A stretch of 61,320 nt of DNA, the filler included. It is 3 parts of 3 records of this genome, joined end to end, with 100 filler letters (N's around TTAATTAATTAA, not from the genome) between each part and the next. Parts side by side here need not be neighbours in the genome. Positions count along the whole stretch, not along the records: positions 17,192 to 39,677 come from SRR20825019_725; 2 more parts are not named here. One strand, given 5' to 3'. Position 1 is the first letter of the stretch; each line of letters opens with the position of its first letter. The notes beneath the pieces are model-generated. The model was not told where the DNA came from, did not search any database, and saw only the letters and a program-made list of their open reading frames with translations. The position numbers were made by a program, and so were the translations under genes. Shown here one piece after another: positions 1,721 to 39,777 of the stretch.

Positions 1721-1750
1721 CCACAACCACTTCAGCCACAACCACTTCAG
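1721..1750. repeat. 15-bp tandem duplication (CCACAACCACTTCAG x2) in a divergent promoter region
   Basis: Two exact copies seen directly. Confidence 0.9.
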
Positions 1751-1935
1751 GTGGCCGGTCAGTCAGGCGGCCGGTCGAGAAAAACCGACCCAGTTTCGCC
1801 TCCCTCACGGGTCAGAGGCAACACGCCCGCAAATGAATAGTTCATACTATGACCTAAAGCCTCCGAACTGATCACCGTATGTATTGGTGACCTTCCTCAA
1901 CTTGAGAGTTGTAGCAAGAAACTCTACCGGTCAAG

Positions 1936-3868: not shown

Positions 3869-3928
3869 CCAATTCAAATCGGATATATATAAATATGGTG
3901 GAACAGCCCCTTTACCACTGAGATGACT

Positions 3929-5108: not shown

Positions 5109-5179
5109 TCCGTCGTGTGGTGAACCACTCTTCAAACGTTTCAAAATCTGAGAAGTACTTCACACCAGTGAATATAAGA

Positions 5180-5700: not shown

Positions 5701-5798
5701 CTTTGAAGGAGGTATGAAACACTACTTGTAACTGTATGTGTGATATGTGTTAATTTGCCAAAGCTCTACGGCAGTACGCTTAGGTTTTTTTTCCAACC

Positions 5799-7333: not shown

Positions 7334-7602
7334 GTCATATCGATGTGAAAACCTTCGAAAGATCATGGACACCGCGTGGAGAGCTACATCGCTGCTACAG
7401 TCAAGAAGATGGGACCCCCCGCCCAGCTCAACCCGTAAATCACACCAACGCTCCTCTTTACTCATTGCTTAGAGCAGCGCTTCTCCCTTGAACAGTACTA
7501 TTGAGAATGCCTCGCCAACTAGCAAATTCTTCCAGAAACACCTTTCCCCAAACTTGGCCAGACAATCTTCAAGAGCGAAGTTCCCTACTTCAGCAAAACG
7601 CT

Positions 7603-8562
7603 TCAGTTCCGCAGCAATTTTTTGGGTGTTGCCGATGGCGTGTCTGGCATAACGGACACAGTTGCTGTCGGAACCACTGGGCTGTTCTTGCCGCTATCGT
7701 TTCCAGGAGCAGCAGGCTGAGAAGCCGAGAAGGCAACGGGCGCAGCGACAACAGCAGCTGGAACAGCCTTGGTTCGCGAGTCGTTAACCTGTGGTGTCAC
7801 AGTAGCAGTGGCAGCAGCAGCCGGGGCGGCAGAGAGGGCCACGGCAGCAGGATCCGAACTCGCTTGCGCAGCAGGCTGTGCCTGAGGCGCCTGGCCTTCC
7901 AAGGTAACTGGCTGATCCCCCCATCCGCCAGTCTTCGTGTGCTCCTTAACCCATTTCTCATGCTCCTCCTTCTTCTGAGCCTGCAAAGCCACATACCGTG
8001 CCTGCGCTTCTTTCACCTGCTTAGCAGCCTCGGCGACGCTAAGGGGCTTCTTCACACCCACTGCAGATGGCTCCGCCAGTTCGGGGGAAGGAGTAGCCTT
8101 CTTTGGCTCGAACTCATCAACGGCATGACTCTCAGCTTTGTGCAGGGTATCTTCGCTCTGTGTAATAGCTGTGCTGTACTTACTCTGCTCACCTGCCAGG
8201 TCGTTCTCTGCCTCTTTAAGTGAAGCTAGATCGGCCTTCAGCTTGTCTTCCCGGCGTGTGATACGCTGCTTGATCAGCCCTTCCACAGAACCCTCATCAA
8301 GTTGTGCCTTTTGGAGAGCAATATCGGCAACTGTTGCCGGATGTTGGTCCTGACGCTCCTCACTCGCGCTAATGGCACCATTCAGACTGGTTTCGGCATC
8401 TTGGGCAAGCTTCTCGGCCTTTGCAGCCTCGGCATGAGACGTTTCACGAGACCGCTCAAGATCAGCAGCAAACTCACTGGTGGTATCAGCCGGTGATGGT
8501 GCCGCCTCGGCAACCACCACGGCGAGAACAGACACCACACCAACCAGCAGTGTGGTCCGCAT
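7603..8562 (-). CDS. Secreted Ala/Glu-rich coiled-coil protein, single exon, unknown function
   Basis: 319-aa ORF with N-terminal signal peptide MRTTLLVGVVSVLAVVVAEA, heptad-rich middle and Pro/Ala/Thr tail. Confidence 0.7.
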   Translation of the reverse strand: MRTTLLVGVVSVLAVVVAEAAPSPADTTSEFAADLERSRETSHAEAAKAEKLAQDAETSLNGAISASEERQDQHPATVADIALQKAQLDEGSVEGLIKQRITRREDKLKADLASLKEAENDLAGEQSKYSTAITQSEDTLHKAESHAVDEFEPKKATPSPELAEPSAVGVKKPLSVAEAAKQVKEAQARYVALQAQKKEEHEKWVKEHTKTGGWGDQPVTLEGQAPQAQPAAQASSDPAAVALSAAPAAAATATVTPQVNDSRTKAVPAAVVAAPVAFSASQPAAPGNDSGKNSPVVPTATVSVMPDTPSATPKKLLRN

Positions 8563-8769
8563 GGCACTTCGTCGTAGCTGACAACGGCGATGTCAGACCA
8601 GCTATATTTGTAGTGTGCTGATCCAGAGGCCTGCCGGCCACCTCCACACAAGAAAACCAGAGTTTTGTCGCAACCAGGATGGGTAAAGGTGGGCCATGGC
8701 CCTTCGCTGTGCTCGCGTCGCCTTTGCCTGGCTTTTGCTCACCAGCCAACCCGTGGTCGCCTCAGTCCA

Positions 8770-9330
8770 ATCCGGTGCCCGGGCAGCTGGCCGAGGGCGG
8801 CCGGCCACTGGGCCGGCGTCGGCGCTTGGACCCCTCCGGGTCATCACTGGCCGAGCCGGCCGGCGCGGCGCGCCAAGGGCCCTTGCCCTACGCTAATATA
8901 CACTATATCGAGATTATCCATTATATAGATGGGAAGGAGCCCTCCGGCCTCCACCAGACTTCCAGTCCCGCCTGCTTGGAAGAAAGTCCCTTTTCCCGAC
9001 AGGCTGACTAGCCGGCTGCCCAGCGGGATCACAACTGATCTCCACGACTCCGCCCATCGCTGCGAGGGCCACTGACTGGCTGTGCCACTGAGCACTGTGA
9101 GGTGGGCGGTCGGCCGCGGGGGCCGCGGCGGTTGGATCCCTCATCGACCACGGCGAGCGACGGGTGCCACCAAGGAGTCGAGGACGTTCTCGGGCCTTGC
9201 GAGCTTGATCGCTTGAGCTGGCCCGGTCGGTGCCCCACGCGCGGCCCTGACGAGGTGCCCGGCCTGCCGCGCTCGCTCGCTCGCCCGTCCCAAAAACGGC
9301 TTGCCAAGCACAGGCCGCCGGCTCACTGGC
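8770..9330. promoter_or_regulatory. GC island(s) in the divergent intergenic region
   Basis: GC-rich blocks at 8770-8880 and 9100-9330 flank an AT-rich TATA-like patch (~8893-8928), between ATGs at 8562(-) and 9509(+). Confidence 0.5.
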
Positions 9331-9508
9331 AGGCAAACTGGCTCTTGCAAGGTTCAGTCTGTCTCACTGCAGTCTGGTTTGGCAACGCTGTTCCGGGAGC
9401 TCTCGCACTGACTGATCTGATAACTTTTCCAGAGAGAGCCCGCGTTCTCGTTTAGTTTCCCTTTCATATATGTTGAAAAGTTCATGTTGAAGGAAAACTA
9501 CCTAGAAT

Positions 9509-11389
<1,881 letters not shown>

Positions 11390-11511
11390 CTAGTGCAGGA
11401 AAGGCGCACATCGATTCGCTCGCGGCTCTAAGCGAGAGACGCGCTTTCACGCCGTCCTATATGCGCCCTCTATAAAGTGTTAGATTCATCATATGAGCTA
11501 GCCGGAGAACG

Positions 11512-13477
11512 CTACAGCATTTTGTGCCGACGAAGGCAACATATAAGGATCGCCGCGATTATTCCCATGAGAATACAGATGGCAAGGAACCACCATGGTC
11601 CAGGGTCACTTTGGCCAGGCACGTACACGTTCATTCCGAACATCCCTGCCACAAGGGAAAGAGGCAGCATGATGGTCGCGACGGCGCTGAACTTTTTCAT
11701 GACAACATTGATGCGATTCGAAGCTTCCGCCACTTCCAAAGAGAGCTGTGCTAGGTAGTTGCTGTGGGAAAACGAAAGCATCTCCCTTCCTCCCTCCACC
11801 TTCTCCAACATCCTCACAAGATGATCCAGCACATCCCGAAAATACACTCTGCTGTTGACACTGATGTTTGGGAGATCCTTTGTCACAATAGTGGCAACCA
11901 CTTCCTTCTTAGGAATGAGGACCCGCCGCAATTTCGCCAAGCGTGCGCGGGCACTGCCTTTAGTAATACATCAATACATGCACAGAGTGTAACTATGTGA
12001 TCACCCACCTATACGGAGAAGGACATCCTGTGCTGAATCGCGGACACTAACAAGACCAGACAAGTCATCAATACTCTCCACCCCTCCGATTGCTCCTGCC
12101 ACTACTGTTCCAAAGAGATCCGTCGATATATCCATAATCAAGTACAGGATCCAGCAGGTGCTGAAGTAATGCTGTCGCCGGATAGATGTTTTCTCTAAGC
12201 GGCCAATCACGTTGGAGACGACATCAGTTGGAGACGAATGGAAGGACAGAATGCAATTCTCAAAAATTATTACGTAGATGGAAACAATATCCAGGTAATC
12301 CCGGCCAAAATTTTCGTTGATTGTTCCCACATTCACGAACAAGTAGTCATGGTCTACAAAATATTCAACCTGGAGCCGACTTAGAAAACTCAAAACACAA
12401 CATGCTCATTGTGGCTACCTTCTCGCGTCCCTCGATATCATCGGTCGACAGGACGTCCTCACAGGTTAGAGGGTGCAGGTGAAACATCTCTTCGATAATG
12501 GCCATATCAGCCTCAGTAATTGCCAAAAAATCGAGCCAATAAGGACCCTTCGTTCGAATGTCATTCGGTAGCTCAGACACGGACTTGTACTGCACAACTT
12601 GACGTGTCGGACCGACGTATGTAATCAGGGGGTCAAAATTTTCTTCTAGCGAATTTACAAGCTGACCACCAATGAATACCATCATAAGCAGTATACTGGG
12701 TATACTTACCTGGCTCGTAGGGTGAAACGGGTCCACAGCATCTTCATGAGCACTTGCAACGCCCATCTCAATATCACTATGGTTGCCGTCCTTCCTACAC
12801 GTAGAGCCGTTCTTTTCTGCAGCCATTGTGCTCCTCAGCTACCGATATGAACCCCTTCAGCCCCATTTGCCACCTACCTATATCACTTTCTCGCCGTGGT
12901 GATCCTAAGACGATGCTTCCATTCTGTTCCTCCTGAAGTGCATCTAGAGCCTGCGACAGGCTACGACGCGTGCGATCGGCGCTCATATCTGCACCGATGG
13001 TTTTTTCGCGGCCTGGTGATGCACTGCCGCTGTGGCGATTGCTCTTTCCTCCTTCATCTTCACTAGCATTAGAACTTCGACGCAAACGGGTCGAGCCCGG
13101 TGCCACCTCTAGGTAATCCCCTCCTGTACTTTCCTGTTTGCACGGAGACTAAGGCCTCACTCTAAAAGGCAAGTGCAAAGGGTATTCTCACCTCGCCGTC
13201 GGCTGTTGAAACAATGGAGAGTGGGATGGCGTCACCCCTCGCGCTGGAGTTGACAGCATCGCCCTCCATAGATACGACAGCAGGTTCTGAAAAGGTTCTT
13301 CTCACAATTTCAGGGCTAACATCCATAATACTTGTTTCCTTATCCACTTGAGACGTCGACAGAGCCTTGCCTAAGCACCAGTAAGAGTCCTAGTCAGCTT
13401 TTCACCCATCACATAGACACAGCCATACCATTGGCTGTTACAGGAGCTGGTTCGTTGCCAACGCCAGAAATTGACAT
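11512..13477 (-). CDS. CorA/ALR-family Mg2+ transporter, multi-exon; start approximate
   Basis: YWLDF, FHLHPLTCED, YFRDVLDH and AGMFGMNVYVPG (GMN motif), two C-terminal TM helices and a disordered N-terminus. Confidence 0.88.
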
Positions 13478-13599
13478 CTGAACAACAAAAATTGGACCGT
13501 GCCTCTAGAACAAGGCGATTCCACTCCTTGGAGTCCTGAAATTAAACTAGCCTCCAGATATTCACATATAGTGTCGAAGTCGTTTGCTTTTACTACGGC

Positions 13600-13940
13600 C
13601 GGCAGGGATCCGCGCCCCGGCTCACGGGCACGGATGGCTACGAGCCGTCCTGGCGCCCGGCGGGCAGCGGGGGCGGGCCGCTCCGCCTAAGCCACGCCTG
13701 CCAGGGGCCGCGGCCGCCGCCCGCACCTCCGGCGGCGGGCCGGGGGCCCCGGCGGCCGACGCGGCGCCGGGCCCGCCGGGGGCCACCTCGGGTGCCATTG
13801 ATTCGATGGGATAGCCCTGCATCGGAATTGGTGATTCCCCCGGTCTCGCTACAGTCCAACACGACCGGACGATGATCTCGCGGTCGCGGCCCGCTGACCC
13901 GCAACCCGGCTCGTCGTGCCGGCAAGTTGGCCCATTGCAC
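13600..13940. promoter_or_regulatory. GC island upstream of the CorA-like gene
   Basis: Near-pure G/C at 13650-13790, ~120-450 nt upstream of the minus-strand start. Confidence 0.55.
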
Positions 13941-14083
13941 CCAGCCTTTCGCGGCTCAGTCTTGCATGGCTCGGTAAGTAGCCACACAACTGCGTGTTTG
14001 ACTTATCCGCAATACTTAATCAACTCCTTTAATCTATCATACGAGGTGCTGTGTCAACAACCGAACCGGAGTCATATTTAGGT

Positions 14084-16734
14084 TCATCCAGATGTGTTGG
14101 TACTGGCAGCTTCTTGCGCAATCGAAATGATCTCATCCAATGTAGCAAGCACGCCCACCAGTGATTCTGGGAGGTTAAGGTAAGGCCCCAAAAGAATTCA
14201 ATCGAGAGACAGAGCACGTACCTTGCCTCTTCCCAAATGACATATCGGCGATCTCCTTCTTCATTCCTTCTGCCTTCTCCCCAGCCTTAATGACTTGAGC
14301 CGCCAGGGAAACCTCGGCCTCTTTCATTTGGGCAATCGTGGTCTGCAAGGGCAAGGCGACTCCCGGTATGTCAACCACCTCATTCAGCTCATCTTGGTAC
14401 TGTGCAATCTTCCGCTTTACCAGTCGCAACCTGTCATGACTGACCTGAACCTCCTGCATATTCTCCTTAACAGACACTCTCAGAGAGGACATGTATCTCT
14501 CAGATCCTGCCTCCAATATCCGCTCCAGAGTACCCCGGCGAGCCTCGGCTTTCTCCCGTAGGGTTGAGAACGTTGCAGTCAGATACTGCCTCACCTTTTG
14601 CAAGCGGTCATAGTCATCTCGCTGGAGTGCCAATTGCTGCACGACCGCACGCTCGTCCTCAACAAGAGAATTGATTCTATTTGCGTGAATATCATCACTC
14701 GAGAGGGATTCCATGTTCATCAGCTGGCTGGTGTTCTCCTCGATCTTCGCGTTGACCATCCGGAGTTCCGTCTCCAATTCTCCCTTCCTTGCCAGCAAAA
14801 TTCCAGTTTCTTCTTGGAGCTATTAAAGTATATTCAGAAACAATTGTCACAAAGATCCACCTAGCTCATACCTGAGACAGTGTCTGCTGCACCGCTTTGT
14901 ACTCCTCGAGCTTGTTGTGCTCCAGATCCTGTCTCTGCTTCTGCACGTTCATTTTATCTTGAACAAGCTTATCTTGAGAGCGTCCGAGTTTCAAAATGTG
15001 CTCATCAAGGCGCTGAACCGTCCCTGTGTACGCATCCTCAACATCGGAGGGAGAAAGAACAGCACTGAGAAGCTTGGGCATCAGGGATTTCTGCCTTTCG
15101 TATAAGGGCAAAAGCTCATCTGACGGCGAACCTGCAGACAGTTTAGACTCGATGGACTCCTCAAGGTCCATCAGCTCCTTCTCAAAAGCAGAATTCTCGG
15201 AAGTCATCTTTTGGAAATAAGTCATGTTCTCGGCCACAGCGTCTGCTACCACCGCTGAGGTCTCAGGCTTAGCGTATTCCAATCCGTGCGCAATGCTTGT
15301 AACTCCGGCCAAAAGACTAGCTGTGAGATCATTATCGGCGTCCAAAACCCGCGAAGATATCGTCTCGAGAGCCAGACGCTCCCTGTCTGACGCGGCAGGA
15401 TGCGTGACCACACCACGGATCATAGAACGGAATGCTCCTGACGCAATGAATACGTCGATAAACTTGACCTTTTCCCCTGTTTCCTCTGAGGGCCACGTTT
15501 GAGAAGAGGACATCAAATTCAGCCAAGACTCCCAGAGCGTTACACGCGCATCGGATCTACATATACAGACTCGCAATAAGCACGATGCCTTACGGCCGGA
15601 ACTATACAGAATGCTTACCCTTGATGAGCAACCGAAGATGCATACAAAAGATCACGAGAGAGTTCCTCCGCCGTGTTGGGCTTTCCCTTGGTGTGAGGTC
15701 GCTGAGAGCCCGAGTTCTTACCCTTCCTTTTGTTGTCCTGGTGCTGCTTCTCACGATGTGGCTTTTCTTGGGAGTGAGTTTTGTGAAGGGTTCCATGTGT
15801 GGGAGCTGCTGGGCCTGCTTGCGTCGCCATACCAACTGGGTCGAAGCTACCAAAGGTAATCTACACAATATGTCGGAACAGTGCTGGTAATCAAGAATAC
15901 TCCGCAAATACATTATTGCCAGCAGGAAGGGAATAGTCCAGTCCTGTTGAATGCACGCTTGCCTCGAGAGGCACTGCCGAAGCGGTGCCATTGGCCGATA
16001 CATCATTGCCTTTCTTGGGGCTCTTCTTGGACTTCGACACACTCGTTGCCTTCGTGTCATCGCTGCTAGACTTATCTTTCGTGTGCCAGTCTAGGAATGA
16101 TCAGAACATGCAGACAATCCAATGTAGAAGCTCACCATCAGTACAGGTCAACCGGTCCAACAAAGCATTGACGTCGGAAGTATCATATCCTGAGGGTTCG
16201 TGAGCGGGTAACGAGCAAGAGCCAAACTCAATTAACCACCTTTGTCGTCCATTCTTTCAAGAGCTTCCACAACTTTGGTCTCGGTAAAGCCCATAGCCAT
16301 GGCTTGTTCAACTACTGCCTTGTCGAAACGATGATGATGAGGATCCACATGCCTGCACAATAGAATGGTTCAGTACCCAAAGTAAAGAACTGACAGCAAC
16401 ACGATAAATGACCTCTGCGTAGGCGCCAAGTTATCTGCCGCGTGGTCCTAAGGTATCTTTTAAGAAAGTCACACGTGCGACTAAGAGATAACACCCACTA
16501 CCTTTTTCTTGGTGTCGCTATGTGTTGAAGAAACCTTCTTCTTCTCCCGTCTTTTTGCAGACTTCGATTTCTTACCGCTTGGGTCCTTAATAGGCACGGC
16601 CTCTGAAAGGCAAGTGTTAACTTTACTTGGTGGGAACCTAAACAGAAATGACACGTACCACCAAGCAAATCATAAGCGTTAGAAGTTGTGGCGGCTTTGC
16701 GCTCAAGGGCGCTGGCTCTTACGACTCCGTCCAT
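14084..16734 (-). CDS. Hypothetical protein with UBA-like motif and long C-terminal coiled coil, multi-exon
   Basis: VEQAMAMGFTETKVVEALE is UBA-like (MGF). ORFs 14866-15576 and 14175-14798 are heptad-rich and joined by introns. Lys-rich N-terminal exon. Start is tentative. Confidence 0.55.
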
Positions 16735-16869
16735 ATATACGTGAGTAAGAAGAAACTACCTTGTCTTGCCATCTATATTATTGGCGGATTTCGCGCTCGC
16801 ATCCTTCATGCGACCACACCACAAAGCTGCTTCACTTTTTGCTAATACCTTCTGTCTTCGTGCAGACCA

Positions 16870-17091
16870 GCCGCGGGGGCACTCAGCTGTCCGGCGCCGG
16901 CAAGCACTGGCAGCCGCCGGCTCCGGCCAGCAGCTCGTCGGGGCCAACCACGCAAACGTCCGCCGGGCCTCGCGAGGCGCTCGTGGGGGCGCCCGGGGGT
17001 GTCACCGTGATGGAGTCCGGTTTTCGGCGGCGCCCGGCCGGCCCCGCGCGCCGGCGGTCGTGCCTCGTCGCCACTGATCAATACACTCGGC
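16870..17091. promoter_or_regulatory. GC island at the contig end, upstream of the minus-strand gene
   Basis: GC-rich block in which contig 1 terminates. Confidence 0.5.
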
Positions 17092-17191
17092 NNNNNNNNN
17101 NNNNNNNNNNNNNNNNNNNNNNNNNNNNNNNNNNNTTAATTAATTAANNNNNNNNNNNNNNNNNNNNNNNNNNNNNNNNNNNNNNNNNNNN
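17092..17191. other. Artificial contig linker (N44-TTAATTAATTAA-N44, stops in all six frames)
   Basis: Seen directly; identical to the linker at 39678-39777. Confidence 0.97.
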
Positions 17192-17571
17192 CCCCCCCCC
17201 CCCCCCCCCCCCGTCCGCCCCAACCCCAACCCCCAACCCCACCCCCCCGGAGTCTAAGTCTGACTGCGCAAGTCTGCGGGACTGGGCGGTGCGGCGAGCG
17301 GGCGGTCGCAACACCGCGACTGCCGATGCGCCCTCACTCGCCGGTGCGAGGGGGTGCAGTTCAGTGAGGCAACTACGTCACTGAGTCTCCCGTCGTCCGC
17401 ATCACTGACTACCTCCGCCACCCTGCATCAACCAATCGTGGCTAACCACGGTTCATGACTACATCACTGCATGGGGGCCGAGGTCCGTAAGGTCGTCGTT
17501 GCTGACTCTGCTTTTCAATAATAAGCATATGTCTTTCCGCGCTCCAAATCCTTCAGAAGGCCAATACAGCT

Positions 17572-20989: not shown

Positions 20990-22682
20990 TTAGTTTTCGA
21001 TCCGCGACGGAGCATTCCCAGCGACTGCGGTGGGCACGTTGGAACGAGGGGCCTCGTGCTCGCCCATCATGCTTTGAAGAAGGCTTGGTGACTCGCAACC
21101 CTGCGAGGCGCCAATATTGGGAAGGTCGGCAGATGCCTCGGAGATTCGGTTTCCAACATTTTGGGGAATGTCCGCGCCATTCTGTTCTACGCCACTCCGC
21201 GTTCGCTCCGCATCCAATACCTGAAGCATTTTCGTCTTGTTCTGGACCTGGGCCAGGAGAGATGGCGTCCAGCCATGCTTCTCTTCAATGTCAGTGCGTG
21301 CGCCCAATGACAACAACAAGCGGATCAGATCCGGCTTCTGGTTCTGGACTGCAAAATGCAGGGCAGTCATGCCGTGAAGGTTCTGAGTGTTAAGATCGGC
21401 ACTACGCAAAGAAGATCAATATCTCCACAAAGCATGATACCACAACGGCTTACTTGAACTCGTGAAGGAGCTCGAGGAAATCGGGCCGATTGGCCACAGC
21501 GGCCACAAGCACGGGGCAGGAGCCCTGGGGGGAGCACGCATTGGGGTCAGCACCGCACTCCAGCAAAAAGCGCGCGGCTTCCATGTGGCCAGCGTTGATG
21601 GCGAGGGACAAAGCAGTCAGGCCCTTCGGACTCTTGACGTTGAGATCTGCCCCATACTCGTGCAATGCAGCTGGCAAGAGATGTCAGCAAGCCCACCTTG
21701 ATATTCTTCTCATACTCACCAATCACATCGGTGTGGCCCTTATGTGCCGCCTCCAGGATAGGATATGATCCCTTCGGGCTCTTCGTGTCCGGATCCTGCC
21801 CGTTCTCCAAAAAGAACGAAGCAACTGACGCATGACCTCCCACTGCAGCATACTGCAAACCACAAACTCCTTCCGCAGACATGGTCAGCGGGTCCAACCC
21901 CTCGTTCACCAATGACTTGATGAACTCCAGTTTCCCTGCATAGGCCGCAGCATGGAGACCACCCACGCGCAACTGCAAAGTGTCTACGTCAGCGCCGCAG
22001 CACACTCGAGTCGTCTATCCATACCTTGGGTGTTGGCGGCATATATGTTGGTGTTGAAGCAGATGTATGCTGAACAGGAGGCACGTATGCCACAGCCCGG
22101 TTACTGTGACAGGAGTCAGCAAAACCTTTCGGAGCAGGCAAGTGTGCAAACTCACTAATTAATAAACAGGAAAACCGCGGACAGGAAAATTAAGAGCACG
22201 CCGAGTGCAGAGACACCAAAGCAAGCATACGAAATGTAGTCAAGCCATTTGTGCTTCATAATGTAAAACGCCACGAATACACCAACGCTCGCGACGATAA
22301 GGAACAAAGCAAATCCAAAGCATGTGAAAAGAATATTACGAAGATTCGTGGGGTCATGCACGTTGGTCTTGCCGCAGTGTTGGCATTTGACCGCTGGAGA
22401 ACTCGTTAGCTACTACAGACCGCATTCGAATCGAGAATACTAACTCGCTTCTGCACCCTTCATCCCCAGGGAGCGGTGGCAGTGCCCGCAGTTGTACATA
22501 TTTCCTTGCCTGTTCTGGTCGTTCAGAAACGGCTCTGTCGGCGTTCCGACCATCCTGGCCCCTGATACCCCTCCAACATAAGGGCTGCCAGACGCGTTGG
22601 GCCGCTGCTCCCTCTGCCCTACAGCACTATTTGCACTCCAGGTGCGTTCGCGGCCACCCGAAGACTGCCCCCCGCCGTCCAT
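20990..22682 (-). CDS. CxxC zinc-ribbon + 2-TM + ankyrin-repeat protein, multi-exon
   Basis: Spliced: YNCGHC...VKCQHCG, two hydrophobic helices, then ankyrin repeats (GLHAAAYAG, GLTALSLAINAGH, GMTALHFAV, GWTPSLLA). Confidence 0.72.
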
Positions 22683-24454: not shown

Positions 24455-25486
24455 ATGGGCAAGGGTAGCGCTAACATCTGTGACTCTATCTTCGATGAAA
24501 TGGCTCAGCGCCTCAAGGACGATCCCAAGGAGGCCGAGAACATCGTGAAGAAGGCCAAGGCCGCCTTCCAGTTCAAGGTTCCCGGCGTTGGTGACTACTG
24601 GGCCAACCTCAAGAAGGGTACCGGCGAGATTGGCAAGGGCAAGGTGTGTGTGAGCCACTCTGGTTTGATTCGCAATATTCACTATCGTTGTTTTGATTAG
24701 TGCCCCGTCAAGGCCGATGTGACCATCACTGTCGACGAGGCCAACCTTGTTTCCCTCATTGAGGGTAAGCTTACACCCCAGGTAAGCTCTAAAAGTCGTT
24801 TGTGTGGACGATTGCTGATCTCACTCGAATAGACTGCTTTCATGCAGGGCAAGATCAAGCTTCAGGGCAACATCATGAAGGCCCAGAAGATGGAGGGTCT
24901 CTTGAAGGCTCGCCGTGACGCTGGTGAGACCCTGAAGTCTGTGCCCGGTGAGTGAAACTGTGTACGTGTGCTGAGGGTGTGCAGTGCTGATGACCGCTTG
25001 CAGGAATGAAGGCCCCCGCTGCCTCCGCTGCCTCTGCCAGCTCTGTTGTCGAGAACGTGTTCGCCGAGCTGACTAAGCAGCTTGCCGCCGACCCCTCAGC
25101 TGTCAAGAAGGTTTGTGGCGACACTAGTCAACCATGCGTATGCGCTGATAGATGTGGGATCTTTCAGGCCCAGAGTGTCTTCTGCTTCTCCATCAAGGAT
25201 GTTGGAGACTGGACTGTGGACTTGAAGAATGGCGCTGGAAAGATCGAGAAGGGCAAGCCGGCTAAGGCTGACTGCACCCTCATCCTCTCTGAGCCCGACT
25301 TCATGGCACTCATGGGTGGCAAGCTTAACGCCCAGACCGCATTCATGCAGGTAAGATTATTGCTCTCATGCCGTCCCTACCCTGTTTGTTCACGAATCTC
25401 TCTCCCAGGGTAAGTTGAAGATCAAGGGTAACATGATGAAGGCCCAGAAGCTCGAAGTCCTCATGAAGCCCAAGGCTAAGATGTAA
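24455..25486 (+). CDS. Tandem SCP2 sterol/lipid-binding domain protein with peroxisomal PTS1 (-AKM), 6 exons
   Basis: Two repeats of W.(A/V).LK.G.G.I.KG...KAD.T....E..L..L..GKL..QTAFMQGK.K..GN.MKAQK. Exons 24455-24643, 24701-24781, 24833-24947, 25004-25110, 25168-25350 and 25409-25486. Confidence 0.9.
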
Positions 25487-26720: not shown

Positions 26721-27085
26721 ACCCTACGCCAACCGTTAAATCAGAATTCATCGCTATAAAAGGAGTGAAACGGAACTTCGGAAATTGCAATTCCGTTATT
26801 ATTGCTAATTTCAAGTGACCGCAAACTCCACTCTGGGACGCTAGCCCGAATCGTCGTCAGCACTGGCCCGTCGTCCCTTCAGCAGTCGGTTCGCCATCAG
26901 GAGCCCCGACACATCATTACCACTGCGGCACGTTACTGTCAGCAAGGGACAAGCAGGGATGATTCGGCCTTCTCCCATGAGTCCTGTCGTGAGCGAATGA
27001 GTCATGGGCACATGGGCCCTCCAGCGACCCCATCCAACGAAATCCAACGCGCAAACTTTCTAACACATGATTTATTCGGGAAAAA

Positions 27086-28098
27086 TTAGAGGTTGGAGGT
27101 GTAGTCGTAATCCTTGTAGTTCAAGTTGAAAGCGGCAACACAGGTGGATCCGATGGTGGCATAGAAGAAGTCGTGGACGAGGTTGATGATGGGCTTGATT
27201 CCACCAAGGACAACCTGCATGAACGGCTTGTAGGCATCATAGATCATGTAAAGGAGAGGCCGCCAGAACTTGTTGAGGATGGTGTTGGCAGTGCAGAGAA
27301 CATAGTAGTACTGACCGTCAAGTTAAACTTCAACCAACATTGATACACTTAGTCGGAACACTTACCACCATAGCGGCACCGAAACGGAGAGCGAGCTGCA
27401 TCATCACGAGGAAGGGGTAGTACAGCACGGTCAAAAGCTGGAACACAAGATGTACAAACTTGGTCCAGGAGTGGCACACAGCGGGGAGAGGGAGAGCCTT
27501 ATTCTCAATGTTGTAGAGAGGGTAAGTGGGGTTGGTCTTTGACATATCAACAGCGAAGAGAGACTCCTCGAGGAAGATCTTGCGGCCCTCGGAGTCCCAG
27601 TTCTTCTTGTAGTGAACGGGGTAGATGGTGCGATCCTTCTGCTCCTTGATGGCATTCTTGGCGGTCTTGGACTGGGAGAACTCCTTGCCCTCTATCACCA
27701 ACGCATTAGAGCCGAAGACAACAGCACTATCGTGAAATGAACCTACCACCATAGACAATGGGAGTGCAGGTGGTCTGAGCGAAGCTCGCAGCAATAGGAT
27801 CCTCCTCCTTATCATCCTTCTTGTCCTTCTTCTTATCCTCCTTCTTGTCCTCCTTCTTGTCCTCTGCCTTCTTTCCGTCCTTCTTGGCGGCCTTCTCAGC
27901 TTCCTTCTTGGCCTTCTCCTCCTCCTTCTGCCTCTTCTCTTCCTCCTTCTGCTTCTCGGCAGCAGCCTTCTCCTGAAAGGAAGAAGTATCAGCTACCAAG
28001 TCGCCCCGCTCATCGCCGCAGCCAAAGACATTTCTGACACCAGCCAAGCATAGGATATCAGTCTAAGATCTTACCTCGGGTGTCTTACGAAGTCCCAT
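27086..28098 (-). CDS. Caveolin-like amphipathic membrane protein, paralog A (266 aa), 4 exons
   Basis: Exons 28098-28075, 27972-27747, 27691-27366 and 27310-27086 splice in frame. K/E/D-rich N-terminus, then a long hydrophobic/amphipathic region with 11-residue Pro spacing. AATAAA follows the stop. The gene model is solid; the family call is tentative. Confidence 0.6.
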
Positions 28099-28921
28099 TA
28101 TAACCTTCTATGATACAAGGGATACACAATCTGCAAGAACATATTTAGTTGAATAGGGACTATGCTCCCACACAGCGCAAATAGAGCAGAATGGGTGGCG
28201 ACATGAGGCCATACTGTGAGAATCGCCCACCGGCCTGCCGACAGTACTACCGGGCGGGTTATCTGTCGGGGAGGCTGTGTTTCTTGCATCGCTGGGTACT
28301 CGCTGCCGGACAACGGATGGGCATGGTGAGGTCCGGCTCTGGGCTGGCTGCGCTGGGCCGCACGGCCTCGACGCTTCGCTTGCGTTGATGAATCCGTGGC
28401 AGTGTTATTATCGGACAATTCCGAAAACATTCCATATACAATAGTACACTAAATAGTTTACATGTAAATACAGTAAATTATCATCGATTTCACTGAATTA
28501 CGAGCTGAGGTGACAGACTGAAGAAATTCGCTTGAGGATATGGCAGAGGATCTCCCTTGGGCTCGTTGGTTGGGCTCGAAACTGCTTGTGGGTGAGCAGT
28601 TCATCACGAGGGTTACTAAAGCGGCAGTAGACCCAGTGAGCACGACAACGCCGCGGGTCGGCGGCAGCGAGGCCAATTCTAAGTTTGGTGCCACTGTCCG
28701 GTCGTCCTCGGCCTCTTGCTGCAGTCGGAGCTGGTATCTGCGGCTTCCTGGTGGTCGTCGGCACATCACGTCCGGCAGCCGGGACGGCCTTTGAAAACCG
28801 GCTCGGCCCTGCCGGAGCTGCATGAGCGTCACGCTGCCGGCAACGGCCCCTGGGGAAAAACTTTATTCATATGAGGTGCACACAATTGTGTTTGCAGTGT
28901 TGATAGACCAGTAAAGATACA

Positions 28922-29643
28922 ATGGGTAAGTGTGGTTTTGTGTATTGGGATTAGGTTAAGAGGCTGTGCCCGTGGGTGAGCTAGTTGAGTGTGACGGGAA
29001 CGGGTGGGTCGGGGTGGGGGTTGATTGTTGACGTCATTGGATGACTGGCTCTGACTCTGGCTTTTTAGGCATTCTCGAACAGATCAAGCTCACCCCGATG
29101 ACCATCGGTAACGGCGAAGCGGTCAAGCAGGACAAGAGGGCGAAGGAGCTCGAGGAGGAGCTGATCCTCCCCGCCGTGTGGGATTTGAGCAAGGTCCCCC
29201 TTACCCCCATGTGGCCCCTTCTTGAGGTACACGAGGGCTCCGAGCAGACTCCCATCTGCCTCGATCTCTGCAAGACCGTGACCCAGATTTGCGTACTCCT
29301 TTTCGATATCATCCTCATCATCATGTACCCCTTCATCGTGATCTACCACGAGGCCGTCAACTTGTAAGTATCAATAATGCCCTTAACAAGCCCCGCCTTA
29401 CAATCGTACAGCGTGACCAACTTGACGTACTATTTCTTGATTTTCCCCTTCAACTTCGTCTTGAACTACTATTTCTACCCCTTGTTCGATGTTGTCCACC
29501 GTTTCTATGTGCCCACCATGTCCTTCATTGTCTGGGTGCTCCGTCCAATCCTCGCCATCTTTGCCGAGGTCGCCACCGCCTTCGGCCATGCCATTCACCC
29601 CTGCGTTGTTGGTGTTTCCCGCATCATTAAGGGCAAGTATTAG
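28922..29643 (+). CDS. Caveolin-like amphipathic membrane protein, paralog B (176 aa), 3 exons
   Basis: Exons 28922-28925, 29069-29363 and 29412-29643 splice in frame. Aligns by eye with paralog A over most of its length. Confidence 0.6.
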
Positions 29644-29796
29644 ATTCGATAAACCTCCTCTTTTTTTGTGTTTGCAAGGATAGAACTTTATTGGATTCCG
29701 TTTTCTTCTGCGGCGCTGCGATAGCAACTATCGTGTTTAGTCGCGTACAAGCCTGCACACGCCGATATCATCTGGCAAGCCACACATCAACCAGCA

Positions 29797-31248
29797 TCAG
29801 GGAAGAGAATACAAAGCAATATTCTTGCCCTCAAATGGCAGCACCACCCTAACAGCGCTTTGGCCTTGTCTGTCTGTAATCTCGGTAAGGTATGTTAGAT
29901 ATTCCTCATAAGAATGGACGGGAGAGCCGTCTTGGAGCCGGCGGTGCGGGTTCTCTGATGAGAATACACAGCATGGCACGACCGCGAATGGCTTCTGGCG
30001 GGCTAAGGCCGTCACGACAAGAGGCTCGGTGGCCTCATCGGGGTGCATCCCGACCACCAAACCACATGTCTCTAGCAAAGCCTTCTCGCCTTCGTCAATT
30101 TCACCAAAGGATTCGTCAAAATATTTCATACACTGCGGGATAGACTTGACCAAGGACGACTCGCCCACATCACCATCTTCCCTTGCTGATACCCCGACTC
30201 CATTCTTGTTCGCTCTGCGCTTCTCTTTGGCAGCTCGCTTCAGAGCCTTGTGCTGCCGGGCATTCAACTTGACAGGACGCGGGTCCACAACAGTGCTCGG
30301 GTATCCCTTTCGGATAAGTTCCCATGACACCTCTCCGCGCCCTCCCGCAATGTCGAGCACGCCCCGCCTCAAGACATCCACCCCAAATGTTTCCTCCAGC
30401 CATTCCACAAACACCAATGCCCGACTGCAGTGGCCCTTCATATCCGTATAGCGCTCTTTCTTCTGCTCACGGCGGCGGACCACAAGTGCATGGCACAGAG
30501 CCTGTCGCGTTGTGGCAGTCTCCGCCGGAATCATGTGGGAATACGAGCATCCAACCTTTTCACAAGTGCCTGAGTTCAACCACAGCTTGCATAACCCAAG
30601 CCGAGCAACCATCTCTTCCGGTCCCTCGTTCTCAGGCGGTGGCATCACTCCGGCCTCCTCGGTGCCCGTCGCACCATTAGAGTCTGCTTCTGAAGGGGCG
30701 CCAGGTTCCTCGGTGTGATGGACGCGCGTGGCTGATGGGGGCTTGTACGACATACCTGATTCAAATCGAATGCCAGGGCGGTCCGCCTTCCATCGGGAGA
30801 CAATCTCTACCTCCTCGGGCTGGCAGCGAATGCCCACTCCGTGACTTAGCACCTCAACTACTCCTCCAACCACCACGACATCTCCGCACTTTATCAGCTT
30901 CGAGACCTTGGAGAAGGTGTTGTGCTGTTCCGCTTCAGTGCACCGCATGCACACATGAACTAGCATAGGCTCGGAAGCAGGGCGGGGGAGGATCGATGTA
31001 TGTCCATTGCTCGTTACACCAAGATCAATGTCGAAGAAAAATATGCTACGCGTGGTGCGCGTATTCCGGCGAACTACCTGCCCTCGGACTCCGGTCACTC
31101 CGGTTTGCGCTGTTGTGCTTGTAGCGGAGCGGCGTTCGGCTTCACAAAGTCTGGCAATTGTGCGATACATAGACAGGTTATCGACGTAATCCGAAAAGTC
31201 AAGGTTGACCGGGCTAGGGGACGGCGCTTGGCTATTGTCACTCATCAT
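29797..31248 (-). CDS. OB-fold + CCCH zinc finger + class I SAM methyltransferase protein, single exon
   Basis: VRGQVVRR...IFFFDI (OB-like), CKLWLNSGTCEKVGCSYSH (C3H1), VLDIAGGRGEVS, GMHPDEATE and PFAVVPCCVF. First ATG at 31248. Confidence 0.8.
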   Translation of the reverse strand: MMSDNSQAPSPSPVNLDFSDYVDNLSMYRTIARLCEAERRSATSTTAQTGVTGVRGQVVRRNTRTTRSIFFFDIDLGVTSNGHTSILPRPASEPMLVHVCMRCTEAEQHNTFSKVSKLIKCGDVVVVGGVVEVLSHGVGIRCQPEEVEIVSRWKADRPGIRFESGMSYKPPSATRVHHTEEPGAPSEADSNGATGTEEAGVMPPPENEGPEEMVARLGLCKLWLNSGTCEKVGCSYSHMIPAETATTRQALCHALVVRRREQKKERYTDMKGHCSRALVFVEWLEETFGVDVLRRGVLDIAGGRGEVSWELIRKGYPSTVVDPRPVKLNARQHKALKRAAKEKRRANKNGVGVSAREDGDVGESSLVKSIPQCMKYFDESFGEIDEGEKALLETCGLVVGMHPDEATEPLVVTALARQKPFAVVPCCVFSSENPHRRLQDGSPVHSYEEYLTYLTEITDRQGQSAVRVVLPFEGKNIALYSLP

Positions 31249-31379
31249 GAGTGCCGACTTTGTGGAAGTTGTGGCAGTCGAAGCGGCCAGCTGCACTGTC
31301 GGTTCAGGTTACTGCCTGCACTCAACCTCGACTCACTCGTGAGGCACCGTTTGGTCACTTAACTTTCAAATGATCGACC

Positions 31380-32418: not shown

Positions 32419-34912
32419 ATGGAGGACAGTCATCAGGTGGCTGACCAAGCCCCTGCGCAAGGTGGGGGGTTACCTTCGATGGCGCCGCATACTTCTGGAC
32501 AGCAGGTATGTCCCGCGGAGCTGTATGCCTTGTTGAGAAACAGGGAGGAGGAGATCGAACGGCTGGTGGCTGAGAACACCACCCTGGTGAAGAAAATCTC
32601 CGAGCTGCAGTCACAATCCAAGGTCTCCGGCTTCGGTCTCCCTCCATCGCCTACCGGCCGGCCTTCGGAACCTCTGCACATCACTCTTGCTCACTTGGGG
32701 ATGGGTGGGGTGAGTGAGCGCGAAGGCCAGCTCAGCCGAACCGCGTCTCCCGACAGCTTCTTTGGGGATGTGATGGAACCACCATTGTCCCCGCACACGA
32801 TACAGGACGCCGCCCAGAGCGCCCGGCTCTTCTTCTCAGTGGCCCAGGAGCTAGGCTCGGCCGGGCGGACGCACCGGTCCTCCGCGGACTCCGGGGGGGC
32901 AGACGATGATCTCCCGACTGGACGCAGTGAGCGGGAGCATGATGAACACTGTGATGTATCGCCGGGGTGCAACGAGCTGGCGGACATGGATGAGAGAATG
33001 TTTGTGCGCGTGTGTGATCACCTTGACCTCGGGCTGTCCAAGACTGAGACCATCCGCCTGTTTGGTCACGTTGACAAGGAGGGACACGGCCGTCTCACGC
33101 TGAAACGCATGCGCGCGGCGCTGCCCCGCGTCCCGCTCTTGCGCGCTGCGATGTCGCGATACAGATGTCGCAAGCGATGGAGCATATCCGCAGGTGAGTT
33201 ATGTCGCGTGTTTGCCGGGAGCCCTTGTCTTATTTATGATGGTGCCCACGTTAGAGTATCGCTATGACGCATCAACTTCATTCAACTACAAGCACCCTAA
33301 ATACCAGGCAGCCATCCGGGGCCATGACGGCACGTCGGATTTGCTGAGTCCAGAGAGGATTCACCATGAAGATATACATGGCCCGTTAGTGGGAGAGTAC
33401 AGGGACATCCGCAAGAACCTTGACTACAGTTATCATGTGAATTACACTGAAGAAAGGCAGCTCTGGCAGGACAATGTGGTGCGTGGAGTTGCTGTTCGTC
33501 ATACGGCGGTGCCTAGACCGTGGATTGTGTTCACGGCAGGGGCCATGGGGTCGGGCAAGGGATTTGTCATGAGGTGGCTATCGGCACACGGGATGTTCCC
33601 ACTGGAGGTGATTGCCAAGATTGATCCGGACGAGTTCAAGGCGATGTTACCGGAGTGGGCGGGGTATGTCAAGAGGGACAATGAGGAGAACAAGACCGAG
33701 GCCGGCACGCTGTGCCACCGGGAGAGCGGGTTCCTCGTAGAGGTGGCGCAGGAGGTCAGTTTGAGAGCCAGTCAGAACATTTGGGTCGATGGGTCCTTGC
33801 AAGATTTCGAGTGGTACTCGTCGACATTCAAAGACATCAGGCAGAGGTATCCGCATTACCGCCTGGCGGTGTTTTATGTTCATTGTAGCGCCGAGAAGGT
33901 TGTGATGCGCGCTGAGAAACGTGCAAAACTAACAGGACGAAGCATTCCGGCCAGTATTCTGTCGCAGTCCATCGAGCGGACAAGGGAGTCCATCCTTCGG
34001 CTGGGCCCACTGGCGGATGTGCTGTGTGTGATCCGTAATGAGGGGAGCGTCCCTGCGCTCGAGTTGTTTGAGGACCGCACCGGATCCATGCGTGCTATCC
34101 TTGACAGATTTTCCGTCCACCCAGAGCCCCCGGCGTTCCCCAGGGCACTACGTCCCATGGTCTTGGAAGAGGTGAAGTTTGGGGATGTGACCATTGCGGC
34201 CCAGTCAGTGAATATCCGACTGAGCCGCGCCGTTTGCTCTGCCCTTAGCACCGAAATGGGGCCGAAGCTACTTAGATTTTCGCTTGTGGAGGCGTTTGGA
34301 GACAACCAAAAGGAAGTTTCCGATGCCCTTCGACGACATGGCATTGATGGCAAGGAATACGATCTCGTGTTCAGCCCTTCGTCTCAGAATCACATGGACT
34401 ACCTTTCCGGAAGAGTCGCCGGGATTCCATCGGATGTAGAGCGGTTCGCCTGGTGTTTTGGGGCTGTGAGGAAGGACGGGTCACGCTTTGGGCAGTCTCC
34501 GGAAACCCGGCGCACAGTTGAGGCATGGAGACGATGGTGCGGCGATAGCAATCCTATCGATATGCTCATGATGAGTGGAGGGTTTATATATGTTGGCAAT
34601 GGTGCTGGGGAGCCGGAAGTTCTGTGCATCAACACATTCTCCCAGAGGCCCACTGGCGCTGGATGCACCGTCCGTGCGATACACTTTGCGCCGCCTATGA
34701 AAGTCCCTGCATCCTTCGCGCGCCAGATCATCAAACACGGCCGCATGATGCCAACAACAAAACGGGAAATTCTGCGCGCAGGAATGGAGACATACACATG
34801 GATTCTCCCAAGTGAGCTGCCAGGATGTGCTCCATTCGGGGGCTTCATGGTAAGATCTGTATCGCTGCAAAATCTGCGCGCTGACCATATCTATCCAGTA
34901 TGCATACAATGA
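32419..34912 (+). CDS. Coiled-coil + EF-hand + zeta-toxin-like P-loop kinase, 2 exons
   Basis: EF-hand-like LFGHVDKEGHGRLTL. Intron at ~33194-33254. Zeta-toxin motifs PWIVFTAGAMGSGKG, IDPDEFK, HRESG, VDGSL and RAEKRAKLTGR. Confidence 0.8.
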
Positions 34913-39677: not shown

Positions 39678-39777
39678 NNNNNNNNNNNNNNNNNNNNNNN
39701 NNNNNNNNNNNNNNNNNNNNNTTAATTAATTAANNNNNNNNNNNNNNNNNNNNNNNNNNNNNNNNNNNNNNNNNNNN
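39678..39777. other. Artificial contig linker joining eukaryotic and bacterial contigs
   Basis: N44-TTAATTAATTAA-N44. Confidence 0.97.

Follow-up and report, generated by a model that had tools for sequence, protein, structure and literature searches.

Few proteins are monotopic and occupy a single membrane leaflet, among them caveolins, oleosins, and certain proteins of lipid droplets, and little is known of how they evolved. Caveolin is palmitoylated. Exchangeable apolipoproteins feature 11/22-mers of the apoA-I type which are punctuated by proline, and proteins of this kind possess a broad, highly charged polar face which renders them soluble. In caveolins, hook, scaffolding helix, and spoke describe an in-plane arc of ~180 degrees, and spiral packing yields an amphipathic disc. 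In human Cav1, the scaffolding domain and the spoke together comprise 89 residues, and accepted caveolins share as little as 11–19% identity with this protein, with the most divergent of them still reaching an E-value of 8.8e-11 with the caveolin HMM (PMC12330381). According to the same source, published searches recovered caveolins in Metazoa and a choanoflagellate only, and not in Capsaspora or an ichthyosporean. Likewise, monotopic hairpins with central prolines are described as an ER-to-droplet class of proteins, and caveolin-1 itself is able to reach droplets (PMC12687448).

The window analyzed here is a stretch of DNA of 61,320 nt, and all coordinates given are positions along this whole stretch and not along single records. 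It harbors two divergently transcribed genes, A and B, whose models were rebuilt from the sequence, its translation, and RNA-derived contigs and encode proteins of 266 and 176 aa, which are the lengths proposed in a previous sequence-only reading. Gene A (27086..28116, minus strand) consists of four exons, with exon 1 (28116-28075) comprising the 5'UTR (28116-28099) and the first coding portion (28098-28075, ATG at 28098), followed by the coding parts of exon 2 (27972-27747), exon 3 (27691-27366), and exon 4 (27310-27086, including the TAA stop). Its three introns, i.e., intron 1 (27973..28074, 102 nt, GTAAGA..CAG), intron 2 (27692..27746, 55 nt, GTAGGT..TAG, located within a Glu codon), and intron 3 (27311..27365, 55 nt, GTAAGT..CAG), are all bridged by contigs of run X1 as well as run X2, with joints at 27971/28074 (cut +1), 27691/27747, and 27310/27366, respectively. 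Gene B (28897..29643, plus strand) features three exons, of which exon 1 (28897-28925) bears the 5'UTR (28897-28921) and the coding letters ATGG (28922-28925), whereas the remaining protein is encoded by exon 2 (29069-29363) and exon 3 (29412-29643, including the TAG stop). Intron 1 of gene B (28926..29068, 143 nt, GTAAGT..TAG) follows immediately after the ATG and one further G, and its joint (28924/29068, cut +1) was found in X1. Intron 2 (29364..29411, 48 nt, GTAAGT..CAG) splits a Phe codon and has no bridging contig; its support by RNA is indirect, consisting of an 11-letter loose end at 29363 identical to the start of exon 3 and of one RNA-derived contig beginning exactly at 29412. The RNA evidence takes the form of contigs, not raw reads, from X1 and the marine metatranscriptome run X2, and no contig maps to gene B in either metatranscriptome run (X2, X3). 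All five introns are of the GT..AG type and four of them are bridged exactly by RNA-derived contigs from two studies, so that the splice junctions once deduced from the letters are now backed by RNA. The 5' end of gene A at 28116 is marked by a template-switch-oligo loose end of an RNA-derived contig, and that of gene B at 28897 is abutted by the template-switch oligo. In agreement with the sequence-only reading, both proteins start with MG on a tiny first exon, a start also found in the relative P0001 introduced below. A and B are a divergent, expressed, and spliced pair of paralogues in a eukaryote, and this host, earlier supposed to be a protist, is probably a marine one. An ORF with an SCP2 domain was observed near the pair and, as to a location on lipid droplets, counts as an anecdote only.

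Between the mapped 5' ends lies a divergent promoter region of 780 bp common to both genes (28117..28896, delimited by RNA-derived contigs), in which the intergenic bins from 28161 to 28839 showed zero contig depth in every run. The 5' ends themselves carry the arms of an inverted repeat (16 nt, 75% complementary), with the left arm located at gene A (28115..28130) and the right arm at gene B (28885..28900). In addition, A and B both carry the motif ATTGTGT, each time in the gene's own orientation and lying upstream of the respective mapped 5' end by 6–14 nt, which amounts to two instances only. Both genes exhibit the strong codon bias noticed previously, with Nc values of 38.7 (A) and 33.6 (B) compared to 56.3–59.9 in five further long frames of this contig, which are stop-to-stop ORFs and not validated genes; A-ending codons account for 3–4% in A and B versus 12–20% in these five comparison frames. 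Contig depth cannot rank expression; high expression is deduced from the codon bias, and A and B are probably transcribed at a high level from the one promoter region. Co-regulation is at most suggested by this shared region of 780 bp, the matching codon bias, and the short inverted motif at the 5' ends.

The alignment of both proteins, formerly made by eye, proved to be real, as A and B share 25% identity over 168 aa with an E-value of 9e-15 (BLASTP, composition-based statistics). An exhaustive HMMER search of 1,835,955,588 representative proteins revealed a sole match at E<=0.001, i.e., P0001 (A0A7S3D2T2, E 5.3e-4), an uncharacterized protein of 161 aa from Palpitomonas bilix which is 27% identical to A over 95 aa (E 9e-14) and 32% identical to B over 99 aa (E 7e-18). 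The profile which led to P0001 covered the N-terminal half only; nevertheless, the C-terminal half outside the profile bears the same proline ladder as A and B. A further uncharacterized protein of P. bilix, P0002 (A0A7S3G256, 170 aa), is 93% identical to P0001, and these two, both transcriptome-derived UniRef records, are therefore not an old pair of the A/B type. With four known sequences from two organisms, conservation statistics for the family are thin. Homologue searches returned no relatives among 53 candidates for exon 3 of A, P0001 itself as the only one among 11 candidates for P0001, and P0001 alone among 444 candidates for the profile of alignment A4. The latter alignment was used throughout, since the alternatives A3 and A5 placed ends of exon pieces onto later repeat units owing to the internal repeat of the proteins. 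Best scores in the ESM Atlas were 0.76 (exon 3 of A) and 0.80 (P0001), both below a meaningful level. In the metagenome scans, 117 pattern matches with exon 3 of A and 574 with P0001 yielded no confirmed case, and none was confirmed among viral contigs either (28 matches with exon 3 of B and 64 with P0001). When exon 2 of B was compared to genome contigs, two of 84 stretches were confirmed (L001, L002) and dismissed as chance matches because they belong to bacterial MAGs, cover only residues 63–97 of the query, and lie in frames with nearby stops.

Described families were likewise searched for kinship. Using hmmscan at E<=10, Pfam-A provided no credible family for the four exon pieces of A and B, with two sub-threshold rows attributable to chance, and no family whatever for full-length P0001. 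These family-level tests rest on the exon pieces and P0001, and the HMMER filters lose most matches above E ~0.1. The A4 profile had no match at E<=10 among 177,635 distinct PDB sequences, i.e., the solved chains of all entries. Literature searches on caveolin-like proteins in protists and on Palpitomonas bilix yielded no account of this family. The sequences thus show A and B to be paralogues with no detectable kinship to described families, and the pair is best read as an ancient one, from a eukaryotic family that is new to science and has almost no relatives. The earlier fallback of a new family fits the evidence.

A and B share a layout of three parts, which are a hydrophilic N-terminal portion starting with MG-[LI], a hydrophobic and aromatic-rich domain of about 100 aa, and a short tail. 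P0001 likewise starts with M-G-[LI], and none of the three proteins matches an N-myristoylation pattern of the PROSITE style. The first 37 aa are devoid of hydrophobic stretches (maximum Kyte-Doolittle mean over 8 residues of 0.97 or less), which agrees with the absence of a signal peptide stated before. In A, the N-terminal portion is extended by a Lys/Glu-rich, low-complexity tract of about 60 aa (about residues 9–66; 27799..27972, minus strand), which according to translation and three-way alignment is missing from B and the Palpitomonas relative. Many unrelated metatranscriptome contigs align to this tract at 90–95% likeness. The hydrophobic domain comprises residues 155–250 of A (27137..27479, minus strand, spanning intron 3) and residues 66–165 of B (29260..29607, plus strand, spanning intron 2). 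With a length of 96–100 aa it contains just 8, 8, and 13 charged residues in the three proteins, besides 19–22 aromatic ones, and its mean Kyte-Doolittle value ranges from 0.84 to 1.22, so the hydrophobic/amphipathic region of about 100 aa that had been reported was recovered. The same is true for the prolines placed 11 residues apart: the domain of A features Pro 176, 210, 221, and 232, that of B Pro 89, 112, 123, 134, and 145, and the ladder of P0001 is found at 108/119/130/141. B and P0001 thus share a spacing of 23-11-11-11, and A has Thr at the first ladder position.

The tandem amphipathic periodicity of 11 residues is evident from the ladder spacing, the spectral peak (96–97.5 degrees), and the register table. 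Its unit can be written as P-h-h-p-h-h-p-p-h-h-basic, with position 11 being basic or aromatic. Of the 12 units, 11 have Pro at position 1, and polar residues occur at positions 4, 7, 8, and 11 in 6/12, 5/12, 7/12, and 9/12 units compared to 1/12, 0/12, 0/12, and 0/12 at positions 5, 6, 9, and 10. Calculated over the entire domain, hydrophobicity has its spectral maximum at 96–97 degrees, corresponding to a period of 3.71–3.74 residues, with a peak power of 116 (A), 97 (B), and 60 (P0001) versus 5–8 at 100 degrees, and the observed peak was reached by 0/500, 1/500, and 5/500 shuffles. As a control, 581 windows of 98 aa from a single bacterial permease, a polytopic protein encoded by an ORF on the bacterial contig of the same stretch, reached at most 46.9, with a median of 18.4. 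The polar stripe is about 100 degrees wide and stays in phase across the whole domain only with ~3.7 residues per turn.

A fold model was obtained for P0001 (AF2, alignment of five rows) with low confidence, reflected by a pLDDT of 59 and a pTM of 0.32. It displays a hairpin of two long helices (60–103 and 109–159) which are unbroken at the prolines and form no arc, and its helical part extends as far as residue 159 of the 161, with no C-terminal strand. From this low-confidence model alone we infer that the domain of A and B would be helical. Foldseek found no PDB match for it, and structural matches elsewhere were generic helical hairpins only, with no caveolin. The prediction of a four-copy complex of P0001 scored 0.00, with an uncertain fold and the alignment not used, and carries no weight for or against self-assembly.

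With about an even chance, the helices of A and B are monotopic and lie within the membrane plane, which would make the pair a new family of this type. They may work in the manner of caveolin or of a very hydrophobic 11-mer protein of the apolipoprotein/perilipin type, without membership in those families. Helicity, in-plane monotopic topology, curvature, oligomerization, and target membrane are predicted properties here. The domain, being devoid of a signal peptide, would insert from the cytosol into one bilayer leaflet or the monolayer of a lipid droplet and would lie flat in the membrane plane, with the wide greasy face among the acyl chains. Toward the cytosol would point both termini, the basic residue preceding each proline, and the stripe of polar residues, which is narrow. 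Prolines recurring on one side of the helix would cause repeated kinks of the same sense and hence an arc, and the arcs of several protomers, either of one kind or mixed from A and B, could pack into belts or discs by which the membrane is shaped or coated. Against this in-plane reading speak the low-confidence P0001 model, a hairpin rather than an arc, a classical transmembrane-like window in B (Kyte-Doolittle mean over 19 residues of 2.89 at residues 75–93), and a second window above 1.6 in each of B and P0001. It is possible, if somewhat unlikely, that A and B are conventional small membrane proteins whose domain of about 100 aa is composed of two to four membrane-spanning helices, for example as a long tilted hairpin or a tetraspan whose loops are very short. 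In this case, helix contacts or the pore of an oligomer would be lined by the polar stripe. This would be in line with the occurrence of 19-residue windows above 1.6 in A, B, and P0001, with the two-helix hairpin of the P0001 model, and with residues 97–125 of B, which are free of charges and long enough to span a bilayer. However, the model is of low confidence, and through most of the domain charged residues recur at intervals of 11–15 positions, and a bilayer-crossing arrangement of the segments would bury them. Furthermore, the putative turns contain no polar residues, the stretch of B aligned to residues 104–108 of P0001, where the model turns between its two helices, consisting of hydrophobic residues and one proline only, and the phase is coherent at a period of 3.7 over about 100 aa, more strongly than in 581/581 permease windows.

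As for the location of such in-plane helices, a role as structural coat proteins of lipid droplets, analogous to oleosin or algal droplet surface proteins, inserted monotopically at the ER and partitioning to the droplet monolayer, is a rather doubtful special case. The proteins are small and, judging from the codon bias, apparently abundant, with a very long proline-bearing hydrophobic domain and no signal peptide, and 11-mer amphipathic repeats are a known device by which perilipins bind droplets. Nevertheless, no Pfam match to Oleosin (PF01277), Perilipin, Apolipoprotein, synuclein, or any other family was obtained for the four exon pieces and P0001, and the proline-knot pattern is absent from A, B, and P0001, even in a relaxed form. 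The earlier proposal of caveolin membership is not supported. That A and B are homologues of PF01146, and thus genuine caveolins of extreme divergence forming discs of the caveolin type, is very improbable, even though they are small and without signal peptide as caveolins are, feature a variable hydrophilic N-terminus followed by a contiguous, proline-broken hydrophobic region of about 90–100 aa, and have in P0001 a relative with 18 cysteines in or beside the hydrophobic domain. Neither P0001 nor the four exon pieces matched Pfam Caveolin at E<=10, in contrast to the E-value of the most divergent accepted caveolin mentioned above, and the family profile matched no PDB chain. A loose pattern of the conserved hook signature (human Cav1 residues 68–75) found nothing in A, B, and P0001, in line with the earlier remark on the caveolin signature, nor does the three-way alignment conserve anything comparable. 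Besides, a strict proline ladder of 11 residues is not among the caveolin features given in PMC12330381, and the known range of caveolins is confined to Metazoa and a choanoflagellate. The weak P0001 model has no C-terminal strand and no caveolin among its structural matches; the C-terminal beta-strand of the central barrel is variable and absent from many atypical caveolins (PMC12330381). Still improbable is that deep-branching marine protists possess a leaflet-displacing scaffold analogous to caveolin, either independent of animal caveolins or diverged beyond recognition, with A and B as its two subunits. Here, the 11-mer helices kinked at proline would give arcs in the membrane plane, and these in turn hetero-oligomeric discs or belts.

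The family features a design rule which is unusually regular and easily mutated, i.e., Pro at each 11th residue, polar residues confined to a narrow stripe, and a period of 3.7 residues. It is apparently abundant and belongs to protist lineages that have received little study. Should the in-plane reading be true, these proteins would be a simple natural model for the curving and coating of membranes by kinked amphipathic helices, and they would allow the convergent evolution of caveolin-like scaffolds to be examined outside animals; if it is wrong, they would be another lineage-restricted small membrane protein. The caveolin-analogous scaffold would represent a second, structurally distinct way to build a monotopic amphipathic membrane coat, and true caveolins at this locus would shift the origin of that family far below the ancestor of animals and choanoflagellates.

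Among known proteins, P0001 and P0002 of Palpitomonas bilix are true homologues of A and B and share with them the MG start, the core C..T..L.F......YPF.V common to all, the YY motif, the proline ladder, and the basic C-terminus. They differ in that identity is limited to 27–32%, in their richness in cysteine (18 Cys in P0001), and in the missing Lys/Glu tract of A. Oleosin-type ER-to-lipid-droplet hairpin proteins likewise lack a signal peptide and possess a long central hydrophobic domain that contains prolines, and are small as A and B are, which are also probably abundant; the two-helix hairpin of the low-confidence P0001 model adds to this likeness. However, the hydrophobic domain of the oleosin type is uniformly apolar, whereas that of A and B is periodically amphipathic and bears no proline knot. 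The 11-mer lipid-surface proteins (apolipoproteins, perilipin, alpha-synuclein) resemble A and B in the 11-residue repeat at about 3.67 residues per turn, which results in one straight polar stripe, as well as in units that begin with Pro and in basic residues located where the polar and apolar faces meet. In contrast to their broad charged polar face, that of A, B, and P0001 covers just ~100 degrees, with 8–13 charged and 19–22 aromatic residues per ~100, and accordingly A and B should be integral and not exchangeable. From caveolins (PF01146; human Cav1 8S complex, PDB 7SC0) the family is set apart by its regular ladder and hydrophobic period, by the lack of sequence or profile similarity, and by its hosts, i.e., a marine eukaryote and Palpitomonas, a cryptist relative, which lie outside the range of animals and choanoflagellates given in the caveolin source. 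Both nevertheless have in common the small size, the absence of a signal peptide, a variable hydrophilic N-terminus, about 90–100 residues of tandem hydrophobic/amphipathic helices interrupted by prolines, and the occurrence of paralogue pairs, and for both a monotopic embedding in the plane of the membrane is plausible.

Reading of both strands reproduced exactly the two gene models proposed by the sequence-only reading, with gene A on the minus strand (CDS exons 28098-28075, 27972-27747, 27691-27366 and 27310-27086; 266 aa) and gene B on the plus strand (28922-28925, 29069-29363 and 29412-29643; 176 aa). The five introns, with lengths of 102, 55, 55, 143 and 48 nt, all start GT(A/)AG-like and end in AG. 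The proposed paralogy of the two proteins was borne out by BLASTP with composition-based statistics (25% identity over 168 aa, E 9e-15), and a tblastn search revealed no third copy in the window. A and B have no intron position in common, which argues that the duplication is old.

Exon pieces served as queries in the search for relatives. In an HMMER run against 1,835,955,588 representative proteins, a profile combining A exon 3 and B exon 2 (A1) gave one match at E<=0.001 (E 5.3e-4), namely P0001, an uncharacterised protein of 161 aa from Palpitomonas bilix (UniRef A0A7S3D2T2). Direct comparison yielded E 9e-14 with A and E 7e-18 with B, and the proline ladder described below also occurs in the part of P0001 lying outside the A1 profile; P0001 is a true homologue. 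Its 90% cluster holds one further member, P0002 (A0A7S3G256, 170 aa), which is 93% identical and differs nearly exclusively in the last third (last ~55 residues), inside the ladder. No credible further relative emerged from word-indexed protein searches, metagenome scans, viral contig scans or the ESM Atlas; two matches in prokaryote genome contigs, with frames interrupted by stops, were dismissed as chance. The family thus comprises four known sequences from two organisms. Pfam holds no model for it, and literature searches on caveolin-like proteins in protists and on Palpitomonas bilix yielded no description of such a family, in agreement with the earlier fallback proposal of a new family. 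A, B and the Palpitomonas proteins are a new, very sparsely sampled family, the mode of action of which is probably a variation on already known kinds.

Several structural features noted at first sight were recovered in all three distinct sequences (A, B and P0001). These share the order of an M-G-[LI] start, a hydrophilic region, a conserved block and a proline ladder, and feature neither an N-terminal hydrophobic stretch nor a signal peptide. In A, a Lys/Glu low-complexity stretch of about 60 residues lengthens the hydrophilic region. The block preceding the ladder reads C...T..(3 residues)L.F(8 residues)YPF.V(6 residues)F(5 residues)YY in the three-way alignment. Ladder prolines follow a 23-11-11-11 spacing, being located at 89, 112, 123, 134 and 145 in B, at 85, 108, 119, 130 and 141 in P0001, and at 176, (Thr199), 210, 221 and 232 in A. 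Among the twelve 11-residue units of the register table, position 1 is Pro in 11/12; positions 5, 6, 9 and 10 are polar in 1/12, 0/12, 0/12 and 0/12, and positions 4, 7, 8 and 11 in 6/12, 5/12, 7/12 and 9/12, the last being mainly Arg, Lys or His. Plotted on an 11/3 helical wheel, the polar positions are confined to about 100 degrees, with the proline at the edge of the stripe. Over the full 96-100-aa domain, the hydrophobicity signal is strongest at 96.25-97.0 degrees (period 3.71-3.74), with a power of 116 in A, 97 in B and 60 in P0001 and only 5-8 at the canonical 100 degrees. The observed peak was matched by 0/500, 1/500 and 5/500 shuffles. In a control consisting of a single protein, a polytopic FecCD-type ORF of contig 3, the power of 581 windows of 98 aa did not exceed 46.9 (median 18.4, 95th percentile 37.5). 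The hydrophobic domain contains 8-13 charged and 19-22 aromatic residues. In P0001, 18 cysteines were counted, many of which align with hydrophobic positions of A and B.

Evidence for transcription came from a sequence-run search over 26900-29800, which matched three runs: X1, a run of RNA-derived contigs (share of sampled words 0.36), as well as X2 (0.19) and X3 (0.05), marine metatranscriptomes of one sample. Four of the five predicted splice junctions were bridged. For gene A, all three exact joints (27310/27366, 27691/27747 and 27971/28074, equally 27972/28075) are present in X1 and X2 contigs, hence in two studies; for gene B, joint 28924/29068 (equally 28925/29069) is present in X1 contigs. 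At the unbridged second intron of B, one X1 contig stops at 29363 with an 11-letter overhang that exactly reproduces the start of exon 3, and a second begins exactly at 29412. In X1 contigs, the same added sequence directly abuts position 28116 in gene A and position 28897 in gene B. It is recognisable as a SMART-type template-switching oligo; X1 is therefore cDNA and the two positions are mRNA 5' ends, corresponding to 5'UTRs of 18 nt (A) and 25 nt (B). Contigs of all three runs left the bins 28161 to 28839 without depth. An inverted repeat of 16 nt, 75% complementary, lies on both mapped 5' ends (28115-28130 and 28885-28900), so that the motif ATTGTGT precedes each start by 6-14 nt; with two instances only, it weakly supports shared control of A and B. 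Contig depth is unusable for ranking expression, for which codon usage is informative. Here the claimed bias was evident, with Nc values of 38.7 (A) and 33.6 (B) vs. 56.3-59.9 in five other long contig-2 frames, and A-ending codons of 3-4% vs. 12-20%, the frames compared being stop-to-stop ORFs unvalidated as genes. Dozens of metatranscriptome contigs unrelated to gene A align at 90-95% likeness to its Lys/Glu-rich tract (27799-27972, minus strand) and produce spurious joints; depth and joints within this tract are untrustworthy.

The window of 61,320 bases represents more than one molecule, as three contigs are joined by linkers at 17092-17191 and 39678-39777, each with runs of 44 N on either side of TTAATTAATTAA (N44-TTAATTAATTAA-N44). 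Contig 2 (17192-39677) bears the gene pair and is the sole stretch physically linked to it; contigs 1 and 3 are unfit as its genomic context. Contig 3 (39778-61320) is plainly bacterial. Its siderophore-type cluster includes NRPS condensation, carrier and thioesterase domains, a TonB-dependent receptor, FecCD permease, periplasmic binding protein, TauD, FhuF, ABC ATPase and phosphopantetheinyl transferase, accompanied by a TPR protein, HemA, PRPP synthetase, GHMP kinase and a tRNA (55490-55561). Beside the eukaryotic contig 2, this reveals a mixed assembly of eukaryote and bacterium. Contig 1 (1-17091) bears a malic enzyme at 9684-11029 (plus strand), the N-terminal and NAD-binding domains of which occupy two overlapping frames and must imply an intron or a frameshift; the gene would be a usable marker to place the organism if contig 1 stems from the same genome. 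Contig 2 starts with 23 C in a run followed by imperfect CCCCAA-like repeats (17192-17250), which could be a telomere-like end, comparable to C4A2-type telomere repeats, or a sequencing artefact.

Gene A occurs at 99-100% identity in the marine run X2, so that the source organism lives in the sea. It is a eukaryote with spliceosomal introns, and the only detectable relatives of its protein pair come from a cryptist-related flagellate. Family databases seem to cover this organism poorly: in a Pfam scan of long contig-2 frames (17506-38382), 8/10 gave no match at E<=0.01, the two exceptions being an ankyrin-repeat frame (21547-22014) and a SCP2 sterol/lipid-transfer frame (24994-25413, plus strand, E 7e-16). 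The latter lies about 1.7 kb past the 3' end of gene A, and any connection to a lipid-related function of the pair is anecdotal. A 503-aa frame convergent with gene B (29797-31308) had no Pfam match, and a 602-aa frame (33104-34912, plus strand) encodes a P-loop kinase domain of the Zeta_toxin type (E 7e-20).

The sequence-only reading had regarded both proteins as caveolin-like; membership of the caveolin family was not supported. Against Pfam-A, the four exon pieces gave no Caveolin row at E<=10 (sub-threshold TERT_thumb and Spore_YabQ rows are chance), and full-length P0001 matched no family whatever at that threshold. A profile of P0001 and exon pieces (A4) had no match at E<=10 among 177,635 distinct PDB sequences, and no signature-like motif was found, as already noted. 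According to one study, caveolins are known from Metazoa and one choanoflagellate, proposed members from Capsaspora and from an ichthyosporean did not hold up, and the most divergent accepted member is still retrieved by the caveolin HMM at E 8.8e-11; common elements are an N-terminal variable region, a hook, a scaffolding helix (residues 81-107) and a spoke region (108-169) of tandem helices making a ~180-degree arc (PMC12330381). A weak AF2 model of P0001 from a 5-row alignment (pLDDT 59.2, pTM 0.32; helices 3-30, 60-103 and 109-159) shows a hairpin instead of an arc, contains no strand and had no Foldseek match in the PDB. Because the caveolin layout is matched in outline only, A and B are kept out of the caveolins, and true homology to them is very improbable.

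With regard to topology, an in-plane arrangement of the helices, either within a single leaflet or in the monolayer of a lipid droplet, fits the observations better than a conventional bundle of spanning helices and is given about even chances. It is suggested by the missing signal peptide, charged residues every 11-15 residues within the ~100-aa hydrophobic domain, a polar stripe that stays coherent only if the helix is of the 11/3 type, the placement of the prolines along one side of such a helix and a basic residue preceding each proline. Conventional polytopic topology, to which the same features speak less well, is rather unlikely, and a lipid-droplet coat, as a special case of the in-plane arrangement, is less likely still. 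Another study groups oleosin, caveolin-1 and monotopic hairpins with prolines as proteins that insert in the ER and have a long hydrophobic region at their centre (PMC12687448). The 11-residue register of A, B and P0001 points to a further comparison. Exchangeable apolipoproteins combine 11-mer periodicity with proline punctuation, and perilipins bind lipid droplets through 11-mer repeats. The family of A and B resembles an integral form of this 11-mer design with much greater hydrophobicity.
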